Assembly (NCBI RefSeq): GCF_018977255.1
Contig: NW_024704742.1
Coordinates: 32,366,001 to 32,430,000 of the forward strand
Direction: 5' to 3'
Source: Callorhinchus milii
Taxonomy: Eukaryota
DNA length: 64,000 bases
Within the stretch, counting starts at the first letter, position 1, and each line of letters begins with the position of its first letter. Under the pieces are notes generated by a model. The model was given only the letters and a program-made list of their open reading frames with translations, was not told where the DNA came from and ran no database searches. Below are positions 5,707 through 35,870 of this stretch, piece by piece. The position numbers and the translations under genes are program-made.

Positions 5707-6590
5707 CAACAACAACAAGATTCCATTTATAGAGCGCCTTTCACGTCAGAAGGACGTCCCAAGGCGCTGTACAGTTGGGTCAGGACCCGAGCAGGGGGGA
5801 AATGGTCAGGGTGAGGGGAGGGAAGGGAGGGAGCGAGGAGGGGTTAGAGAGTCGAGAGGGGAGCTGAAGGCTCGGTCAAAGAGACCGGCCTTGAAGGAGG
5901 AAAGGGAGGAGGCGGCGAAGGCACTGGGGGATAGAGTTCCAGAGCCTGGGGGCTGAGAGACTGAAGGCCCGGCCACCGATGGAGGGCGGTTGGGGCGGGG
6001 GATGTGGAGCAGACCGGAGCCAGAGGAACGGAGGGTACGGGCAGGTAAGCAGGGGGATAGTAGGTCGGAGAGGTAGGAGGGAGCAAGGCCGTGAATGGCC
6101 TTGTAGGTGAGGGTGAGGATCTTGAATTCGATCCTCTGGGGGATGGGGAGCCAGTGGAGGCGAGCGAGGGTGGGTGTGATGTGGTCCCGAAGCCTGGTGC
6201 GGGACAGTACACGAGCTGCAGAGTTCTGAATGACCTGCAGCTTGTGGAGGGAGGTGGCGGGAAGGCCGGCGAGGAGAGAGTTCCCATAGTCCAGCCTTGA
6301 GGTGATAAAGGCGTGAACCAGGGTTTCAGCAGCGTGAGGGGTGAGGTAGTGCCATAGTCTGGCGATGTTCCGGAGGTGATGGAAGGCGGTGCCAGTTGTG
6401 GTGCGGATGTGAGGGAGAAAGGACAGCTCAGGGTCGAACAAAACGCCGAGGTTCCTGACCGGCTTTGAGAGGTGGAGAGTGCAGCCTTGGATGCTGATGC
6501 TGTCAGCGCCAGAGGTGCGGAGGCGCTGACGCGAGCCAATCAGGAGGGCCTCAGTTTTATGCACATTGAGCTGAAGAAAGTTGTCTCTCG
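5707..6590 (-). mobile_element. Young 5'-truncated L2-clade LINE inserted in a CR1 fragment
   Basis: 252-aa ORF2 C-terminus (KTEALLIG, VRNLGVLFD, SRLDYGNSLLAGLP, LHWLPI); (TTG)n tail; flanking TCCATTA direct repeat. Confidence 0.95.
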
Positions 6591-6884
6591 TCCATTAACT
6601 TTCTGAGTAAAGGAATGTGTTTTGATTTCACTACCAACAAGTGGAGCTCTAATATTTAGATTATGCTCCCTTTGTTCTGGATTCTCCATCCAGAGGAAAG
6701 TGTCTCCCCTTATCCACTCTTAAAATAACTAAATTAGAGAAATATTTATTTTTATCATTCTTAATTGATGTTACATGGATAAGTAGGTCGTAACTCTTCA
6801 GTGTATGCATTTAAAAAATGATTAGAAGTATAACACTGATATTAACTAAGAAAAGCTGCCATCCCTCATATTATTTCCTAACAG

Positions 6885-13385: not shown

Positions 13386-13959
13386 TATAATTGATTCAGA
13401 GAACAGTGTTGGCAGAGGTCTGAGATGTAGCTTGCCTTAGATGACAGCCTGGCTTAGTTGGTAGCATTCTCGCATCTGGGTCAGAAGGTTGTGTTCAATG
13501 CGCACATTTGAGTTAATCGTCACAGCTGCAACACAGTAGCACTGCATTGTCAGAAATGCTATTGAAAAAGGAGGTTGTCTTCCCTCACTAACACTGGCCT
13601 GCTTCAGGCCCTCACCCTGTGTGCCCCTTAATCGGACTTTCTGCCCACTCCCCCCACCCCCACCACTGGAATTCCATCTCCTTGCCCCTTCTCTCAATTC
13701 TTTCAACCTCTGTCTCAAGTCCTTCCTCTTTGACCGAGACTTCAGTCATCTTCCCACCCCTACCCCACTTGGCCCACCGCTCCCTCTCATGCCCAACCCC
13801 CAGTTTGGGTGCAAATCCTTGACTCTCCAGCACCTTGGGATGTCCTCCTGATGTGATACATAATTGCAATTTGTTGTTGTTGTCTTGGCTGAAAATCCTG
13901 TGTGTTTTGTATGCTTGTGTGTCTAATGTAATATTTAAAGCCAGTTGTTTCTTCAACAG

Positions 13960-14249
13960 GTGACATTGCTTCTGAACCTGATTGAGGATCTTCTATCCAT
14001 TGTGAGTAGTAAGGAAAAGGAGGAAGAGGAGCAAGCTGTGAACAGGCAGACGGCACTCTACAGCTTGAAGCTACTGTGCAAGTGCTTCGGTACTAATCAG
14101 CAAAATCCATTTGTGCCTGTGCTGACGACAGCCGTTGACCTGATCACAGGTGATAGTGAGGAGGAAAGAAACGTGCTGGCAAGTGCATTGCTCTGTGTAG
14201 CTGAAGTTACCTCTGCACTCAAAGCATTAGCAATACCACAGCTTCCAAG
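13960..14249 (+). CDS. HEATR1: HEATR1/UTP10 coding exon (first one in window)
   Basis: cag|GTG..AG|gtatgg; VTLLLNLIEDLL...EEQAVNRQTALYSLKLLCK...ALAIPQLP resembles vertebrate HEATR1 (EEQAINRQTALYTLKLLCK). Confidence 0.96.
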
Positions 14250-14397
14250 GTATGGAGTCTTAGCAGTAGCAACTGCATTGTGTGTTTACTTTATAATGAC
14301 CGTTGAGAGCATTTAAGGCAGGATTTGTTATTAACAGGCTGATATCAGAAGGTTTGTTGTTTGCAGGCTGATATAAGATTGGGTTTGTGCTTTGCAG

Positions 14398-21988: not shown

Positions 21989-22462
21989 GCAGGCAAGGAA
22001 ATAAATTCTTTTCAGGGGTTCTTGGTTTGAGATCAACGTGGAATTTCATATAGATTCCAGCCATTTGAAATGCTAGCTATTAAGACATTGCGTAAGTATC
22101 AACCGTGTGCAATTAAATACAAAATTAATATTTTTTAAAGGATTGAATTCTAGTTGTATAATATAACTAAAGGACTGTATGTCGGTTATATATTTGAAAT
22201 AGGTGGGTTTACAGAAGGATAAGAAAGAGGTTCTATGGAAATATAAACAATCTTCTAAATTCCTTTCCTGAAATTCAAATTAGATAAATAACTCCAGAAA
22301 CACAAGCCACGCTCGATCTTCAAACATCAAGCAACAGTCCATACACAATTTGCTGCATGATTGCGATACAATCTTTCTATAAAGAAATAGAATTGTGACA
22401 GGGTTATGCTCCTAGTGTTAGCTTTGCACAAATGTCAATTGTAGACCACAGCCTCAGTTCAC

Positions 22463-22612
22463 CTACCAAGTCTGTACATCCAGCAGCTCGACATCACCAT
22501 CTATCTCCAAAGTATCAATCTTACTTAGGTTGGTAAAACGGTATTTGTATTCCAATAAGTGCTCCCCGTTGACAGCAACCTTGAAGCAGTCTTCACCACA
22601 ATAAATGATAAC
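22463..22612 (-). CDS. LGALS8: Galectin-8 last coding exon (C-CRD end)
   Basis: cag|[29 protein letters not shown]...[21 protein letters not shown]; 150 nt. Confidence 0.96.
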
Positions 22613-22962
22613 CTGTGGAATTATGGAACACAAATGATCAAAGTTACTAAACTCATCACTGGATGTCTTAACTAAACCATTAATTTCCCTTCTATTTGTC
22701 AGTATAAACACTGGTGATTTCTGGTTGCTTTCCACTTCTAGGTAGTCTACCCACATGGTAAGTTTCCTAACACTGAAAACCAACAACTCAAGTCTTACCT
22801 GTTATTGCTGCTGAACAGTAGCAGCCAAAATGAGTTCCCACCATCTTAAGTGGTTGAAATCAATCCACTCTTCCTGCAGAGATATTTGCACTACTATTTA
22901 CTTTTACACAACTTACTCCAGAAACCATGAAAACCTTTTGATGGCACTGGACCTCTTCTTAC

Positions 22963-23128
22963 CTCAAAGTATGCACTTGGGCTAAATGGGAAGCAATCTA
23001 TTTTTAGCTCCTCTTCACCCCAACACTGATGAAGGAATGAGTTTCGAACAAAGGCTTTCTCTTTGAAGTTAGGCTTCAGGTGCAGCGGAATGTCTGTAGA
23101 CTCACTCAATCGCAGGTTGATGGCAATC
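22963..23128 (-). CDS. LGALS8: Galectin-8 C-CRD core exon
   Basis: gtcag|G..GAG|gtaag; IAINL...HLKPNFKEKAFVRNSFLHQCWGEEE...FPFSPSAYFE; 166 nt. Confidence 0.96.
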
Positions 23129-23857
23129 CTGACAACAAAAGATTCAGTTACATGTACAATAAAAGTTGGCTTCAACAATTCTTGCTCCTGCACCACCAGT
23201 ACTTGGTTAGGGCAGGATATGAATTGATCAGTTACCTAAACGTTAGGTTCATTTAAAGTTTATTGCAAAACAACTGGGTCATGGAGGTTTCCCCAACACT
23301 ATTGGGACTACCTGAAGTAAAACAAAGAATCAGGAGAAATTTACAATTTATTCATTCACAAAAGATTAAAGAGTATTTTCTCTGTTGAAACAACCAATAC
23401 ATGGAGTTTGGATTCCACATTAATGTACCAAGAATTATTGATTTGTTTTATTGACTCATAAAGTTTTGGTATGATCTTGGGCCATCGTGTATTTCATACT
23501 TTACATGAGATGTTAAACCAAGGTCCCATCTGCCTGCACAGGTGAACTTCAAAGATCCCAAGGCACAACTCAAAAAGAGAAGCAAGTTTCTCCCAGTGTC
23601 CTGGCCAACAACCTGCCAGACATGTTATTCACTTCCCGCAATGCCTACAAATCCCAGTCATTGCACTCAACAACACTTACTTGTGAAGTGCTTGGACTTT
23701 TCAAAGTTATTAGCACTACATCAGACGCAAGAATACTTTTCATAGCTCCTTATCAAGGTGATAAGCACCTTGGGACATCTTCCCGACATGAAAGTTGCTT
23801 TACAAATGTAATTTTGTTAATGCCTCAAAGTGCTTTACAGATAATTAGTGTAGATTT

Positions 23858-24430
23858 ACAACAACAAAATTACATTTGTAAAGAGCCTTTCACGTCGGGG
23901 GGACATCCCAAGGCGCTGGACAGACAAAGTTTCAGACCCGAGCTGAGGGTCGGGAGGGTGGAGGACGGGGGGGATGCAGGGAGATCGAAAGTACGGTCTT
24001 GAGATGGGTCTTGAAAGTGGTAAGGGTAGGGGGCAAGGCAGAGGGACTGCAGGATGGAGTTCTAAAGGCTGGGGGCAGAGTGACAGAAGGCCCGCCCTCC
24101 AATAGTGGGGCGAGCAAGGCGGGGGACGTGAAGCAGGCCGGACCGCTGAGCGGAGGGAGCGAACAGGATAGTAGGGGGTTAAGAGGTCACAGAGGTAGGG
24201 GGGAGCAAGACCGTGGAAGGCTTTGAAGGTGACAACCAGGATCTTGAACTACTTCCGCTGTAATGGGAAAGCCAGTGGGGTCGGGCCAGGATGGGGGTGA
24301 TAGGGTTGCGGAGCTTAGTGCAGGAGAGGACTCAACGCTGCAGATTTCTGGATGGTCTGCAGCCTATGGAGGGAGGAGTTGGGGAAGCCGACAAGCACTG
24401 AGTTTGCATAGTCGAGCATCGATGTAATGA
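23858..24430 (-). mobile_element. L2 3' fragment
   Basis: Reversed tail and ORF2 end. Confidence 0.85.
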
Positions 24431-24624
24431 ATGTACCTGGAGTTTGTGGTGATGACTGCCATACTATTCCCCACATTCATGGGTAGGGCTGCAGATTTTT
24501 CACAGCATTTTTTCAAAATAAAAAATCACAGAAACTAAGTGAGTTTTGGCACCCCCATTTAAGTCATGCTATAAGGTTCAATGCACTTTACTGAAGAACA
24601 TCATTCCTTTCAGAATTAACTCAC

Positions 24625-24713
24625 TTGGTTGGATTCTTATCAACTCTGCCCTGAATAGTGATTATCCGTCCAGAACTTAGTCCATCCTTCAGTTTACCCA
24701 TGTAAGGAACCAT
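24625..24713 (-). CDS. LGALS8: Galectin-8 exon starting the C-CRD
   Basis: tttag|ATG..AA|gtgagt; MVPYMGKLKDGLSSGRIITIQGRVDKNPT; 89 nt; phase fits next exon. Confidence 0.93.
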
Positions 24714-26112
24714 CTAAATAAAACCAAAGACATAGGTAGTCATCAAATATGAAATTATGGTTTATCTCTAGATTATGGGTTAGCAGCAAGTGTTCAACTG
24801 TTGACAATAAAAAATTGAAGCTTTTAATCAGAACATTGCAATTTGGATTTTTTTTTAACCTGGATGCCAAAGTTCTCATTGACCAAGCACTGATAATGGT
24901 TTTAATATATTCTACCTCTAGTTTGAATTAGTGATACTATTTATAAATGGAGTAGGGTTACATTTTACAGGATGCTATTTTGTTGATGCTGGAGTAGCTA
25001 TTAGTGTAAAATTAGTATTTGGTAAGTATCACGGTAGATGAACTGAAAATATCCAGAATCAATTAATTGGAGGATTTGATCAAAGATTTATTGTCTGAAG
25101 ACCCAATAGTGTTTCCTTGAAAGAAGTGCCATGGAAGTCACATCCTGCCCTAATAGAAAGTGACTTCGGTGGTGACCTGGTGACTCAGCCATTTTCTTCA
25201 GTGTCCCTAGTCTGGACAAGAAAATTGAACTTTGGGTCTCCACGGGTGTCAGAGTCAGACAATTTTCAGGCCTTGCATATGGCACAACCTGCAAAATACT
25301 GGACCTAGCCCCCTATAATGGGCTCCCTGTATTTAATATTTAAGAACACATGTCCAAGATTTCTAATATAGTGGAGTTTTGTGCTCATTTCTTCCCAACA
25401 GTTCACCTATTCACATATTGTGGGATGCAGTCCACAGGCAGTAGGTATCCCATCAACTCACTGAAGTGGCCATTCTGTCTACAAAAGTCTGGACGGTCCC
25501 TTCTAGAAAGCTGTTTGACATACAGGAATTATTACAGTTGAATTTATTTCTGTCTACACCCAAACATCGATGCACACATACAATCAGAATTGGAAACCCA
25601 TGGTTCAGACTGGAAACTGGAGGCTCACTTCTTTCTTGGTGGAGTCAGTCAGCACAGGCCAGTCTCAGGTCACAGCACCAACAACTGTTTCTCACATTTG
25701 CTGTAGTTTGGCAGATGATTTCAACAAAAGAAACTCTGTGCAGTACAGATTGAGCAGCAAACGCTGTAAAACTATAGCAAATGACTACAAGACGTGTTGG
25801 GAGCAGAGGCGACAAGATGAATCATCACCTTGTTTCCCCCATTGAATTGACCAGGATCAGGCCACCATCCTCTAGGCCACATATTTCTGAAACACCTTTT
25901 TACATACAAAGGTGTTTAGTTTTCTCTGGCTTCTACCAGATTACAGTTCCAGAGTCCACCAGTACTTTATCCAAGTGCCCATTCTTCACATTCAAGCCTA
26001 ATCTAGCCAGCAAACTTGATATTAGACATGCTTCCTTTAAGCAGAATTAGCTGTATTCAGAACAAATGCATTTGACAGTCTCTGAGGATCATACAGTAAA
26101 TAAAGCACTTAC

Positions 26113-26139
26113 CAGTGGGCTGTTGATTCTCTTCACTTG
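26113..26139 (-). CDS. LGALS8: Galectin-8 27-nt linker micro-exon
   Basis: Strong sites ttttgtgttacag|CAA..CTG|gtaagt; QVKRINSPL; phase 0-0; same length as the short linker exon I recall for mammalian LGALS8. Confidence 0.8.
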
Positions 26140-26409
26140 CTGTAACACAAAACAAATACCAATAAACCCAGTCTATGATACTGTAATGGCAGCAGAACAC
26201 TTGCAAATAATTGTAAAGTACAATTTCTTAAACTTACACTATTGTCACCATCAGCTCTCTTTATAGGTAGGTTGGAATATGGGTTTTCCTGCTCCTAAGG
26301 ATAGGTTGCACAGAAAAGATTTGTTGCTTGTTATTGCTGAATAATTCACAATTGTATTTCTGTTGCATGGAAACAGTACACCTTAGGTTTTTTAGGATGA
26401 TACCAGAAC

Positions 26410-27231: not shown

Positions 27232-27351
27232 AGAAGTGCCCAAGAAGGCAATGTTCTGAATGTGGACGGTACCATAAATTCCAAGTGTATCAACTCTATT
27301 CACACTTATTCTATGCTGGTACTCCAGGAAATGTTTTCCATTCACCGCAAC
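27232..27351 (-). CDS. LGALS8: Galectin-8 N-CRD end exon
   Basis: ctccag|GTT..TCT|gtaagt; [40 protein letters not shown]; 120 nt. Confidence 0.95.
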
Positions 27352-28036: not shown

Positions 28037-28247
28037 CTTGAATCGGTCAACCAGGACCAGGAAAATTATCTCAAATGGTTCTCCTTTCTTCAATGGCATC
28101 TCGTACTTTATCTCTTCCCGACCCCATTTTTCGTGCTCCAGAGTGTTACAAACCACGCAGCCAGATCTGCGGAAGCGTGGATTGAAGTGCAAGGCTACAT
28201 CGGCCCGAGGCTTCTCACTGCTTCCACACTGAAAGTCCACTTGAAAT
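28037..28247 (-). CDS. LGALS8: Galectin-8 N-CRD core exon
   Basis: acag|A..AAG|gtaatg; [51 protein letters not shown] is characteristic of galectin-8; 211 nt. Confidence 0.97.
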
Positions 28248-30847: not shown

Positions 30848-30936
30848 CTCTCAGAGTTCTTGGGTATCACTCCCTGCACTGCTACCATTTGCCCACGAAG
30901 CAGGCCACCAAAGATAGCTCCAGTGTATGGTATCAC
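30848..30936 (-). CDS. LGALS8: Galectin-8 exon starting the N-CRD
   Basis: aatag|GTG..AG|gtaag; VIPYTGAIFGGLLRGQMVAVQGVIPKNSE(R); 89 nt. Confidence 0.94.
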
Positions 30937-31459
30937 CTATTAAAAAAATACACAATACATCAACACGACAGAAAGTGTAACATAACCCGAAAATCTTACA
31001 AGAGAAAAATAATTTCAGCTACTTTGAGACATCCTGCTGACATATCAAATCAACAGATTGTTATTTCAAAGAAAAAATTAACCTCCAAGTTACGTATTGG
31101 GTTTTCTTTTTTAAGATGTGCGTCTTACACTTGGCAGAACCCCTCCCAACAGCCCCCCACCCCACCCCCACCCCCTCCACACCCGAACCAGCAACCCCCC
31201 GAATTGGAAGTTCGCATATCACTTGCAATCCCAAAGCCTTTTCGGGGCCACTGCACCCCTGGTATTCACACATAACCGCTGATAGTTTACAGATGAAACC
31301 TTCCCCTTCGTCATCAAGTTAGTTACTTAAGTGTCAGAATGGCTCATGTTTGTTGTTCGTGATAGGAGTGAAGGAGCTATTTGTCACTGGTTGGCCAGTC
31401 AATGCTCTCAATGTCAAACAAAACGATTTTAGCCAGTTAAACTCCAGCAGTACCTCAAC

Positions 31460-32305
31460 ACACAACAACAAAATTACATTTGTAAAGCGCCTTCCACATC
31501 GGGAGGACGTCCCAAGGTGCCAGACAGACAGAGTTACGGACCAGAGCTCGGGGTCGGGGAGGATAGAGGGCAGGGGGGGGGGAAGCAGGGAGATCAAAAG
31601 CACGGTCGAACAGGAGGGTCTTGAGATGGGTCTTGAAGCTGGCAAGGGAGGGGGCGAGGCAGAGGGATGTGGATGGAGTTCCAGAGGATGGGAGCAGAGT
31701 GGAAGAAGGCCCACCCGTGAGAGAGGCGGGGGACGTGATGCAGGCTGGAGCACGCTGAGCGGAGGGAGCGAGCAGGATGGTAGCGGGTTAGGAGGTCGCA
31801 TAGGTAGGGGGGAGCAAGACCATGGAGGGCTTTGAAGGTGAGGACCAGGATCTTGAACTGTGTCCTCTGTGTGATGAGAAGCCAGTGGAGTTGGGCGAGG
31901 ATGAGGGTGATAGGGTCGCGGAGCCTAATGCAGGAGAGGATACAAGGTTAAGGTGAGAGGAGAGGTGGTGGCAGCAGAGAGGTCAAGGAGGACAAGGAGG
32001 CAGAGAGAGCCCCGGTCACAGATGGACAGAATGTCATTTGTCACTTTGACCAGGGCTGCTTCTTGCTGAGGGCGGCACAGAAACCCGATTGGAGAGGTTC
32101 GAGAAGGCAGTGGTGGGAGAGAAAGGAGCGAAGCTGAGAAGCAACAACTCGTTCCAGGACCTTGGAGAGGAAACTGAGGTTGGAGATGGGGCGGTAGTTC
32201 GGGAGCAGAGCTGGGTCCAGTGAGGGATTTTTAAGGACAGGAGTGATGACGGCAGTTTTTAATGGGGTGGGAACAGGACCAGAGGACAGGGAGAGGTTTA
32301 GCACA
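31460..32305 (-). mobile_element. Internally deleted L2
   Basis: NYRPISNLSFLSKVLERVVASQL...PLQSGF RT motif joined directly to the 3' end. Confidence 0.9.
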
Positions 32306-33692: not shown

Positions 33693-33719
33693 CGGGTTGG
33701 ACACCGTCTGATTGGACAT
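33693..33719 (-). CDS. LGALS8: Galectin-8 first coding segment (exon 33736-33693 including 17 nt of 5'UTR)
   Basis: tttgcag|tggggctcagcctcgacATG; MSNQTVSNP|gtaagg, joining NP|VIPY as in galectin-8. Confidence 0.85.
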
Positions 33720-33822
33720 GTCGAGGCTGAGCCCCACTGCAAACAATCCGGGGGTGTGGGGGGGGAGAGACAGCCCACAACTGAGGACAAGGGATCGGGA
33801 CTGAGGACAGGGGATGGGAAAG

Positions 33823-34323
33823 AGAGTGAGGACACTGACAGAGAGAGTGAGGACACTGACAGAGAGTGAGGACACTGACAGTGACAGAGAGAGAGAGGAC
33901 ACTGACAGAGAGAGTGAGGACACTGACAGAGAGAGTGAGGACACTGACAGTGACAGAGAGAGAGAGGACAGTGACAGAGAGAGAGAGGACAGTGACAGTG
34001 ACAGTGACAGAGAGAGAGAGGACAGTGACAGAGAGAGAGAGGACAGTGACACTGACAGTGACAGAGAGAGAGAGGACAGTGACAGTGACAGTGACAGAGA
34101 GAGAGAGGACAGTGACAGTGACACTGACAGTGACAGAGAGAGAGAGGACAGTGACAGTGACACTGACAGTGACAGAGAGAGAGAGGACAGTGACAGTGAC
34201 ACTGACAGTGACAGAGAGAGAGAGGACAGTGACACTGACAGTGACAGAGAGAGAGAGGACAGTGACAGTGACACTGACAGTGACAGAGAGAGAGAGGACA
34301 GTGACACTGACAGTGACAGAGAG
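33823..34323. repeat. Compound hexamer-based minisatellite (GACAGT/GACACT/GAGAGA)
   Basis: Visible tandem array; yields low-complexity ORFs in several frames. Confidence 0.97.
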
Positions 34324-35212: not shown

Positions 35213-35380
35213 GTGTGCACGTGTGGAGAGAGGTGACCTTGGCTGTGACACCTTCTTATCGTCGAGTGACCTGCTGACACTTATTGCCAAAGTACACACA
35301 TGAACAATAACTACTTGAGCAAAGTACCAGAGGGCAACGGGCTACTGTGGAACCACAGTCCAGCGAAGGCCAAGGCCAGA

Positions 35381-35870
35381 GAACATAAGAACATAAGAAT
35401 TAGGAGCAGCAGTAGGCCATTCAGCCCCTCTAGCCTGCCCCGCCATTCAATAAGATCATGGCTGATCTATTCTAACTCCACCTATCCGCCTTATCCCCAT
35501 ATCCCTTAATCCCTTTAACCACAAGAAATCTATCAATCTCAGTCTTGAACATGTTCAAGGACTGAGCATCTACAGCCCTTTGGGGTAGAGAATTCCATAA
35601 ATTCACTACCCTCTGAGTGAAGAAGTTTTTCTTCAACTCAGTGCGAAAGGGCTCACCCCTAATTTTAAAAGTGTGACCCCTGGTTATAGTTTCTCCAAAC
35701 AGGGGAAAAAGTCACCCACTATCTATTCTGTCGTGCCCCTTAATAATCTTATAGGTTTCTATAAGATCATCTCTCATTCTTCTATATTCTAGAGAATATA
35801 GGCCTAAATTGCTCAATCTATCCTCGTAACTCATCCCCCTCATCGCTGGCACCAACCTAGTGAATCTATG
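35381..35870 (-). mobile_element. CR1 3' end
   Basis: (AAGAACAT)n terminal repeat and CR1 3'UTR; matches 48810-48998 in reverse. Confidence 0.9.

Follow-up and report, generated by a model that had tools for sequence, protein, structure and literature searches.

The 64,000-nucleotide stretch analysed here (the window, to which all coordinates refer) comes from the chimaera Callorhinchus milii, the elephant shark (contig NW_024704742.1, positions 32,366,001 to 32,430,000), and carries on its minus strand the LGALS8 orthologue of this species, which encodes galectin-8 and whose C-terminal carbohydrate recognition domain (C-CRD) shows the sugar-site motif His-x-Lys-x-Asn instead of the canonical His-x-Asn-x-Arg. 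The galectin-8 identity, proposed in an earlier note made from the DNA letters alone, follows from the protein match, the presence of two Pfam galectin domains and synteny with HEATR1. A word-indexed search over 5.8 billion proteins with exon 8 gave 443 matches at E <= 0.001 among 449 candidates, and the exon translation is 100% identical to the 311-residue entry 'galectin-8-like isoform X1 [Callorhinchus milii]' (P0001), a protein that the NCBI annotation carries under two accessions. Pfam PF00337 (Gal-bind_lectin) is found in two stretches of the protein with an E value of 1e-78 (261.6 bits, cut-off 22.1), all its best matches in the PDB and in databases are to galectin-8, and its C-CRD scores higher with galectin-8 than with galectin-4 and galectin-9.

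Laying P0001 on the window with GT-AG introns enforced leaves one model only, of nine exons, which translates into P0001 without a difference and whose reading frame is open across all exons, with canonical splice sites. The coding part of exon 1 lies at 33693..33719 (27 nt, with the ATG at 33719-33717) and is followed along the minus strand by exon 2 (30848..30936, 89 nt), exon 3 (28037..28247, 211 nt) with the core of the N-terminal domain (N-CRD), exon 4 (27232..27351, 120 nt) with its end, the linker exons 5 (26238..26294, 57 nt) and 6 (26113..26139, 27 nt), exon 7 (24625..24713, 89 nt), where the C-CRD starts, exon 8 (22963..23128, 166 nt), which holds the C-CRD core (strands S4-S6), and exon 9 (22463..22612, 150 nt including the stop codon TAG at 22465-22463), where the C-CRD ends. 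Exon 8 is bordered by AG at 23130-23129 and GT at 22962-22961. This is the tandem-repeat architecture, with two different CRDs joined by a linker and encoded in nine exons. On the plus strand an exon of HEATR1 is found at 13939-14316 (E 2e-33 to human HEATR1 residues 1638-1736), and the two genes are arranged tail to tail, as in sarcopterygians. The HEATR1-LGALS8 synteny is known from elephant shark and sarcopterygians, heatr1 and actn2b being given as the flanks of elephant shark lgals8 in PMC4989294.

The altered motif is located at 23065..23082 of the minus strand, on strand S4 of the C-CRD, where the codons cac ctg aag cct aac ttc, read from 23082 to 23065, encode His-Leu-Lys-Pro-Asn-Phe (His223-Leu-Lys225-Pro-Asn227-Phe), in exact agreement with the coordinates of the earlier note. 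At 23005..23022 (minus strand) the canonical W-G-x-E-x-R is in turn replaced by W-G-E-E-E-L (Trp243-Gly-Glu-Glu246-Glu-Leu248). The exon 8 translation (55 residues, ...STDIPLHLKPNFKEKAFVRNSFLHQCWGEEELKIDCFPFSPSAYFE) matches PDB chains of the human galectin-8 C-CRD (3vkl_A, E 1.9e-20); the human chain reads ...DIALHLNPRL...WGEEERN..., its first segment being identical to the human sequence quoted in the note, and the window has HLKPN and WGEEEL at those places. Over the eight canonical contacts the C. milii C-CRD is H223 K225 N227 V234 N236 W243 E246 L248, so that five (His223, Val234, Asn236, Trp243 and Glu246) are retained and three are replaced (Asn by Lys225, Arg by Asn227 and Arg by Leu248), which leaves it without the canonical signature. 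The rest of the domain had been described as intact, which agrees with the fold and the model presented below but overlooks the third contact, Arg to Leu248: three of the eight contacts are changed, not two. This third replacement merits little weight, because the last position varies among galectin-8 C-CRDs (R, K, T, N).

Concerning the N-CRD, exon 3 contains RFQ, KPRAD, HFNPRF and WGREE, and the contacts H N R V N W E I carry the canonical signature, as had been claimed. Its last position is Arg in none of the 22 aligned galectin-8 proteins and Ile in 19, mammals included. The N-CRD also retains the subsite for sialylated or sulfated glycans, with R39 and Q41 on strand S3 and R53 in the loop between S3 and S4, as stated for the same C. 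milii protein in section 3.6 of PMC10343441.

Exon 8, whole or in part, is contained in 15 public runs from five studies, of which 14 cover half or more of its sampled words. Four runs, each from a different study (X1, X2, X8 and X10), were compared with window 22300-24800. The X1, X2 and X8 contigs, from three studies, join 22610>22961 and 23127>24624 with CT..AC ends (GT..AG on the minus strand); these joins are introns 8 and 7 of the gene model, and across exon 8 there are 0 differing letters. The three runs, which the run listing labels as RNA by guess only, are read here as transcripts because of the canonical splicing and because a search of the species' own genome with the exons returned intron-bearing copies only and no retrocopy; C. 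milii LGALS8 is very probably expressed. The X10 contig is unspliced over 22300-23534 and is taken as genomic because it continues through the intron; it differs from the window at 22526 (a synonymous Leu codon, by our own codon reading), 22944 and 23460, none of them in the motif. The earlier note had called a single base-call error unlikely, proposing a check of the codons in reads and arguing that Arg cannot become Asn (AAC) by fewer than two nucleotide changes, which holds from any of the six Arg codons. The contigs of all four studies carry HLKPN and none carries HLNPR, so these codons are not an error. In one spliced contig of run X2, 90 bases at 22376-22467 (minus strand) are skipped with GT..AG-type ends; the skip begins inside the last Trp codon and takes out the stop codon, so that the C-terminus would differ. 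Extended C-termini also occur in NCBI galectin-8 isoforms of Heterodontus and Hemitrygon.

The whole LGALS8 locus, together with part of HEATR1 (window 12534-64000), is present again on another contig at 98.4-100% identity, at G000:C3:56705609-56757175 or beyond, with the first 7.4 kb identical and the right end lying beyond the window. In this second copy exons 2, 3 and 5-9 match at the protein level, exons 1 and 4 falling outside the comparison (exon 1 below the search threshold, exon 4 below the 90% identity filter). Either the assembly contains a false duplication or haplotig here, or a segment of more than 51 kb was duplicated very recently; the second copy is without the three X10 variants, which does not separate a haplotig from a true duplication.

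The surroundings of the gene are rich in repeats. About 100 bp upstream of the LGALS8 start codon, at 33821-34323, there is an imperfect GACAGT/GAGA-rich tandem array of some 500 bp with periods of 6, 21, 33 and 39, which produces long spurious open reading frames in all frames. An interspersed repeat of about 490 bp at ~35380-35870 has at least 38 genome copies at 94-95% identity on many contigs and looks like a young family of the short interspersed element type. Long open frames with similar Pro/Ser-rich translations occur at 5806-6594, 23856-24248 and 31334-31947 (all on the minus strand), recurring around LGALS8 and within intron 7, and are considered interspersed repeats and not genes because their read depth is hundreds to thousands of times the exon depth.

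To place the C. milii site among vertebrates we used an alignment (A2) of 24 of 137 proteins, comprising 11 cartilaginous-fish species (one protein each), four teleost and seven tetrapod galectin-8 proteins, and two lizard galectin-4 proteins. In all 13 bony-vertebrate C-CRDs the first seven contacts are H N R V N W E and the eighth is R, K, T or N; human and other bony-vertebrate galectin-8 has H-N-R with W-G-E-E-E-R/K against H-K-N with W-G-E-E-E-L in C. milii. Otherwise bony-vertebrate LGALS8 (structures 3VKL, 4FQZ, 4HAN and 4GXL) resembles the chimaera gene in its tandem-repeat organization, its fold, a canonical N-CRD with the Arg/Gln/Arg subsite and its HEATR1 neighbour, the C. milii protein being ~50% identical to human galectin-8 chains in the fold search; the title of 3VKL describes lactose bound to both domains of the human protein. 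The ten elasmobranch galectin-8 proteins, which are 69-77% identical to C. milii over the whole protein, share with it the absence of the triad Asn (10/10) and differ from it in keeping the triad Arg (10/10), with a small residue where C. milii has Lys: Ala in six (Cetorhinus, Heterodontus, Pristis, Rhincodon, Stegostoma and Chiloscyllium), Thr in Heptranchias and Mustelus, and Ser in Scyliorhinus and Hemitrygon. Their other contacts are kept in all ten, with Ile for Val in two and the last position Arg in eight and Lys in two.

In the larger set the C-CRD triad is HNR in 120 of the 137 proteins, and the 17 exceptions are all 14 chondrichthyan entries (isoforms included) plus three bird entries. 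The deviant bird galectin-8 triads are HNK in P0011 (Jacana), HSR in P0031 (Cepphus) and HNQ in P0094 (Nyctibius grandis); they could be errors or real variants, and P0011 and P0094 are annotated as partial. The neighbourhood of the triad has changed as well: two residues before the His, Pro replaces Ala (A221P) in 10 of the 11 chondrichthyans vs Ala in 11/11 bony-vertebrate galectin-8 proteins, the Pro226 position is occupied in the 11 chondrichthyans by Pro (eight), Leu (two) and Ser (one), and the Asn position by Ala (six), Thr (two), Ser (two) and Lys (one). Judged from these alignments, the S4 strand of cartilaginous fishes differs class-wide from that of bony vertebrates and its Asn position is free to vary there; the step specific to the chimaera is the loss of Arg, with Lys at the variable position. 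A single loss of Asn in the stem and two separate losses take an equal number of steps by codon reasoning. The cross-vertebrate alignment that the earlier note had proposed, here run on sharks, rays and bony vertebrates, finds C. milii atypical, but with an Asn loss that is class-wide and only the Arg loss specific to the chimaera; a simple reciprocal swap of amide and basic residues, as the note had pictured it, is not borne out, since Asn is already replaced in 10/10 elasmobranchs with the Arg kept. No other holocephalan galectin-8 was found: a near-length search retained 27 proteins out of 94 candidates, with C. milii as the sole chimaera, and a shorter-length search gave five candidates and no match.

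The domain around the site is well retained. To tetrapods, the Callorhinchus C-CRD is 55.0% identical and elasmobranch C-CRDs are 52.6% identical on average; to teleosts the values are 48.5% and 46.6%, and for the N-CRD the identities to tetrapods are 61.0% and 59.3%. At near-invariant C-CRD columns, defined at the protein level as identical in at least 19 of the other 21 galectin-8 sequences, Callorhinchus has three private changes (F208I, R227N and H286Y), elasmobranch species having 0 to 4. The AlphaFold2 model, built on A2, has a mean predicted local distance difference test (pLDDT) score of 83.6, with C-CRD blocks between 77 and 94 (90 for the triad block, 77 for the W-G-E-E-E-L block). 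It shows the beta-sandwich CRD fold, with human galectin-8 as its best PDB match (4han_A, E 1.1e-37), and its C-CRD superposes on the human galectin-8 C-CRD 4gxl_A at 0.8 Å over 133 columns (target template modelling score 0.91). By these protein-level comparisons the C-CRD as a whole is not decaying and shows no domain-wide acceleration.

The expected effect of the replaced residues can be approached from galectins of known behaviour. In galectin-1, as given in PMC3396283, His44, Asn46 and Arg48 bind galactose O4, Asn61 and Glu71 bind O6, Trp68 stacks on the ring, and Arg48, Glu71 and Arg73 bind O3 of N-acetylglucosamine. Human galectin-13 (PP13) resembles the C. milii C-CRD in that its Asn position is basic and its third position is not Arg, and differs from it in being a prototype, single-CRD primate placental galectin without the His that C. 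milii keeps. Its natural triad Arg53-Arg55-His57 does not bind lactose; the engineered forms R53H (H-R-H) and R53H/R55N (H-N-H) show no lactose in crystals, whereas R53H/H57R (H-R-R) binds it there, and its authors regard the third-position Arg as critical, lactose not being bound without it, and find that Arg55 seems to help stabilise bound Tris (PMC6294630). The lessons are that a basic residue is tolerated at the Asn position and that the third-position Arg cannot be dispensed with. In elasmobranch C-CRDs (H-A/T/S-R), lactose binding may on the same grounds persist, probably in weaker form.

From these precedents we infer, with confidence that we would put at about even, that canonical binding of lactose and N-acetyllactosamine (LacNAc) by the C. 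milii C-CRD has been lost or much weakened and that the domain has been kept for another role. The C-CRD would no longer bind these sugars in the canonical way, or would do so only very weakly, and C. milii galectin-8 would in effect have a single beta-galactoside site, that of its N-CRD. The C-CRD itself would be kept under selection for a different job, involving either a protein partner, comparable to NDP52 for the human C-CRD, or a non-canonical ligand. Erosion of the site would have begun earlier, with the loss of Asn, because every shark and ray orthologue examined is already without this residue. The earlier note had offered two outcomes, a protein-interaction module without sugar binding or a domain of altered specificity; both still stand, with the evidence leaning to lost or weakened canonical binding because the third-position Arg is critical in the galectin-13 engineering.

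A role in protein binding has precedents in the family. In humans the C-CRD alone binds NDP52, at the GALBI region of NDP52, and the working model of a review has the N-CRD holding the exposed glycan and the C-CRD holding NDP52 (PMC5792709). A sugar-dead yet conserved C-CRD would be compatible with such a division of labour. Leaving the duplicate aside, the nearest paralogous exons in the C. milii genome are two of the galectin-related-protein (GRP/LGALSL) type, at L003 (G000:C9:9339076-9339228) and L004 (G000:C3:80454801-80454932), with triads H-L-T-V-S and D-L-Q-A-R and best PDB matches 5it6, 2jj6 and 3b9c (GRP/HSPC159). GRP and mammalian GRIFIN have no carbohydrate-binding activity, according to PMC3396283. 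The two GRP-type exons are a precedent for co-option in the same family branch. GRP/LGALSL and mammalian GRIFIN are single-CRD proteins that have lost more of the signature than the C. milii C-CRD; measured against the sugar-inactive galectin-like domains (GRP, GRIFIN and galectin-13), the latter has three of eight contacts replaced, the critical Arg included, and keeps His and Trp. Mammalian GRIFIN has a change from Asn to Lys at the triad position where C. milii has Lys225.

Several points weigh against a loss of canonical binding. The case for it is drawn from other galectins, of which galectin-13 is an imperfect yardstick, because the variants that bound lactose in crystals failed on lactose-Sepharose (PMC6294630). 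The Leu248 position is variable in galectin-8 C-CRDs and non-Arg in 22/22 N-CRDs, and the human N-CRD, without that last Arg, binds lactose in solved structures, as their PDB titles state. Five of the eight contacts are strictly kept, the stacking Trp and the His among them; such retention would be unexpected in a long-abandoned site, though the Arg loss could be old or recent. The persistence of H, R, V/I, N, W and E in 10/10 elasmobranchs suggests that their site works without Asn, and the recurrence of H-x-[K/R]-x-N in other fish galectins hints at a working alternative site.

This last observation leads to the explanation that survives best next to lost binding, namely that glycan binding is altered and not lost: the positive charge would have moved within the S4 triad from position 3 to position 2 (Lys225), with Asn227 supplying the amide, and the groove would accept a galactoside or related, possibly anionic, glycan with an altered fine specificity. 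We regard it as possible, though only tentatively so. It is favoured by the retention of His, Val, Asn, Trp and Glu in the C. milii C-CRD and by the statistics of the triad in the family. A search of 1.84 billion cluster representatives with exon 8 gave 288 matches at E <= 0.001, and the best 150 of these 288 were re-aligned, giving 348 CRD stretches that cover the triad, with HNR in 249 of them. In this set position 2 is Lys or Arg in 19/57 stretches without the position-3 Arg vs 1/291 with it (Fisher p ~1e-15); counted per protein, the proportions are 10/23 and 1/144. The p value overstates the case because the stretches are not independent, many being repeats inside a few eel proteins, and the statistic is a lead, not proof; in addition, weak stretches (4-10 bits) may be misaligned. 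The exact [K/R]-x-N arrangement occurs in seven stretches, three in two Anguilla proteins (HFKVNF), three in Ictalurus (HYRPNF) and one in a cockroach (Q-x-K-x-N). The galectin-13 triad (R-R-H) follows the same trend. Three or four separate lineages have a basic position 2 once the Arg is gone, as expected if the groove needs positive charge; such a charge could serve a ligand or pair with the conserved Glu.

Galectin-13 bears on this explanation from both sides: in PMC6294630, the Arg at the Asn position of the H-R-R form is compatible with lactose in the crystal and Arg55 seems to stabilise Tris, but the series as a whole has the third-position Arg as critical. From general beta-strand geometry, a Lys two residues earlier would be displaced by ~6-7 Å, and such a Lys is not needed for the fold, elasmobranchs having Ala, Thr or Ser at position 2. 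No measured activity was found for any of these K/R-x-N domains. The fish proteins that share the basic/amide arrangement with C. milii are predicted, have three to eight or more CRD stretches and are of unrelated architecture and lineage: the eel CRDs (Anguilla LOC118208956 and an A. rostrata galectin-4-like protein) read H-F-K-V-N-F, with the signature elements x-F-N and W-x-x-E-E kept, and those of catfish (Ictalurus LOC108264746, 3272 aa) read H-Y-R-P-N-F, with A-L-N and W-E-K-E-E kept. We consider it rather unlikely that the galectin groove has a second functional design, H-x-[Lys/Arg]-x-Asn, which chimaera galectin-8, the multi-CRD galectins of eels and catfish and perhaps an insect galectin would each have acquired on their own; under it the charge would have been relocated by one turn of the S4 strand, giving a distinct specificity, e.g. 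for anionic or modified galactosides.

Galectin arrays of up to 3840 aa and up to 18 matched CRD stretches are annotated in Anguilla, Conger, Gymnothorax and Synaphobranchus eels and in Ictalurus (P0138-P0143, P0152, P0161 and P0183). Many of their CRDs have non-canonical triads (HSQ, HKQ, HKN, HRN and HRY), and some of these predicted arrays may be fused tandem genes.

Neutral drift, in which the site has been dead since the cartilaginous-fish ancestor lost Asn and Lys225, Asn227 and Leu248 came later without consequence, is improbable in our judgement. It would account for the absence of Asn in 11/11 chondrichthyan species with a variable replacement (A, T, S, K), for the variability at Pro226 and for the A221P change common to 10 of the 11. 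The remaining contacts (H, R, V/I, N, W and E) are however unchanged in 10/10 elasmobranchs, which argues for continued selection there, and R227N, with only two other Callorhinchus-specific changes at near-invariant C-CRD columns, does not belong to a wider decay of the groove. Finally, an explanation by faulty sequencing or assembly, or by a pseudogene, is hardly credible: the near-identical second copy of the locus does mean that the assembly is not simple here, but the compared exons of both copies (2, 3 and 5-9) encode the same protein, the motif is the same in contigs from four studies, three of them spliced with GT..AG introns, and the nine-exon frame is open and its protein annotated by NCBI under two accessions.

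The C. milii protein has been used before as the outgroup of a galectin-8 phylogeny (PMC4989294) and aligned with the human protein as a 'primordial' galectin-8 (PMC10343441). Its C-CRD site goes unremarked in the accessible text of PMC4989294 (supplementary alignments aside) and in that of PMC10343441, and full-text searches for galectin work on chimaeras, sharks and elasmobranchs gave nothing further on it. Degraded galectin signatures as such are already known from GRP, GRIFIN and galectin-13; a galectin-8 C-CRD of H-K-N type and the class-wide loss of Asn in cartilaginous fishes appear to be previously undescribed.

The two domains of galectin-8 are thought to cooperate, both binding glycans and the C-CRD also recruiting autophagy receptors. 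A natural galectin-8 C-CRD without the critical Arg, in a vertebrate class without the Asn, is a ready-made separation-of-function allele for this system. If the C-CRD is sugar-dead yet conserved, partner binding would be the ancestral and sufficient role of this domain, glycans being sensed by the N-CRD alone. If it still binds glycans, its groove would be of a new design, met again in other galectins of fishes, and were that second design true, the two domains of cartilaginous-fish galectin-8 would read a different pair of glycans from those of bony vertebrates.

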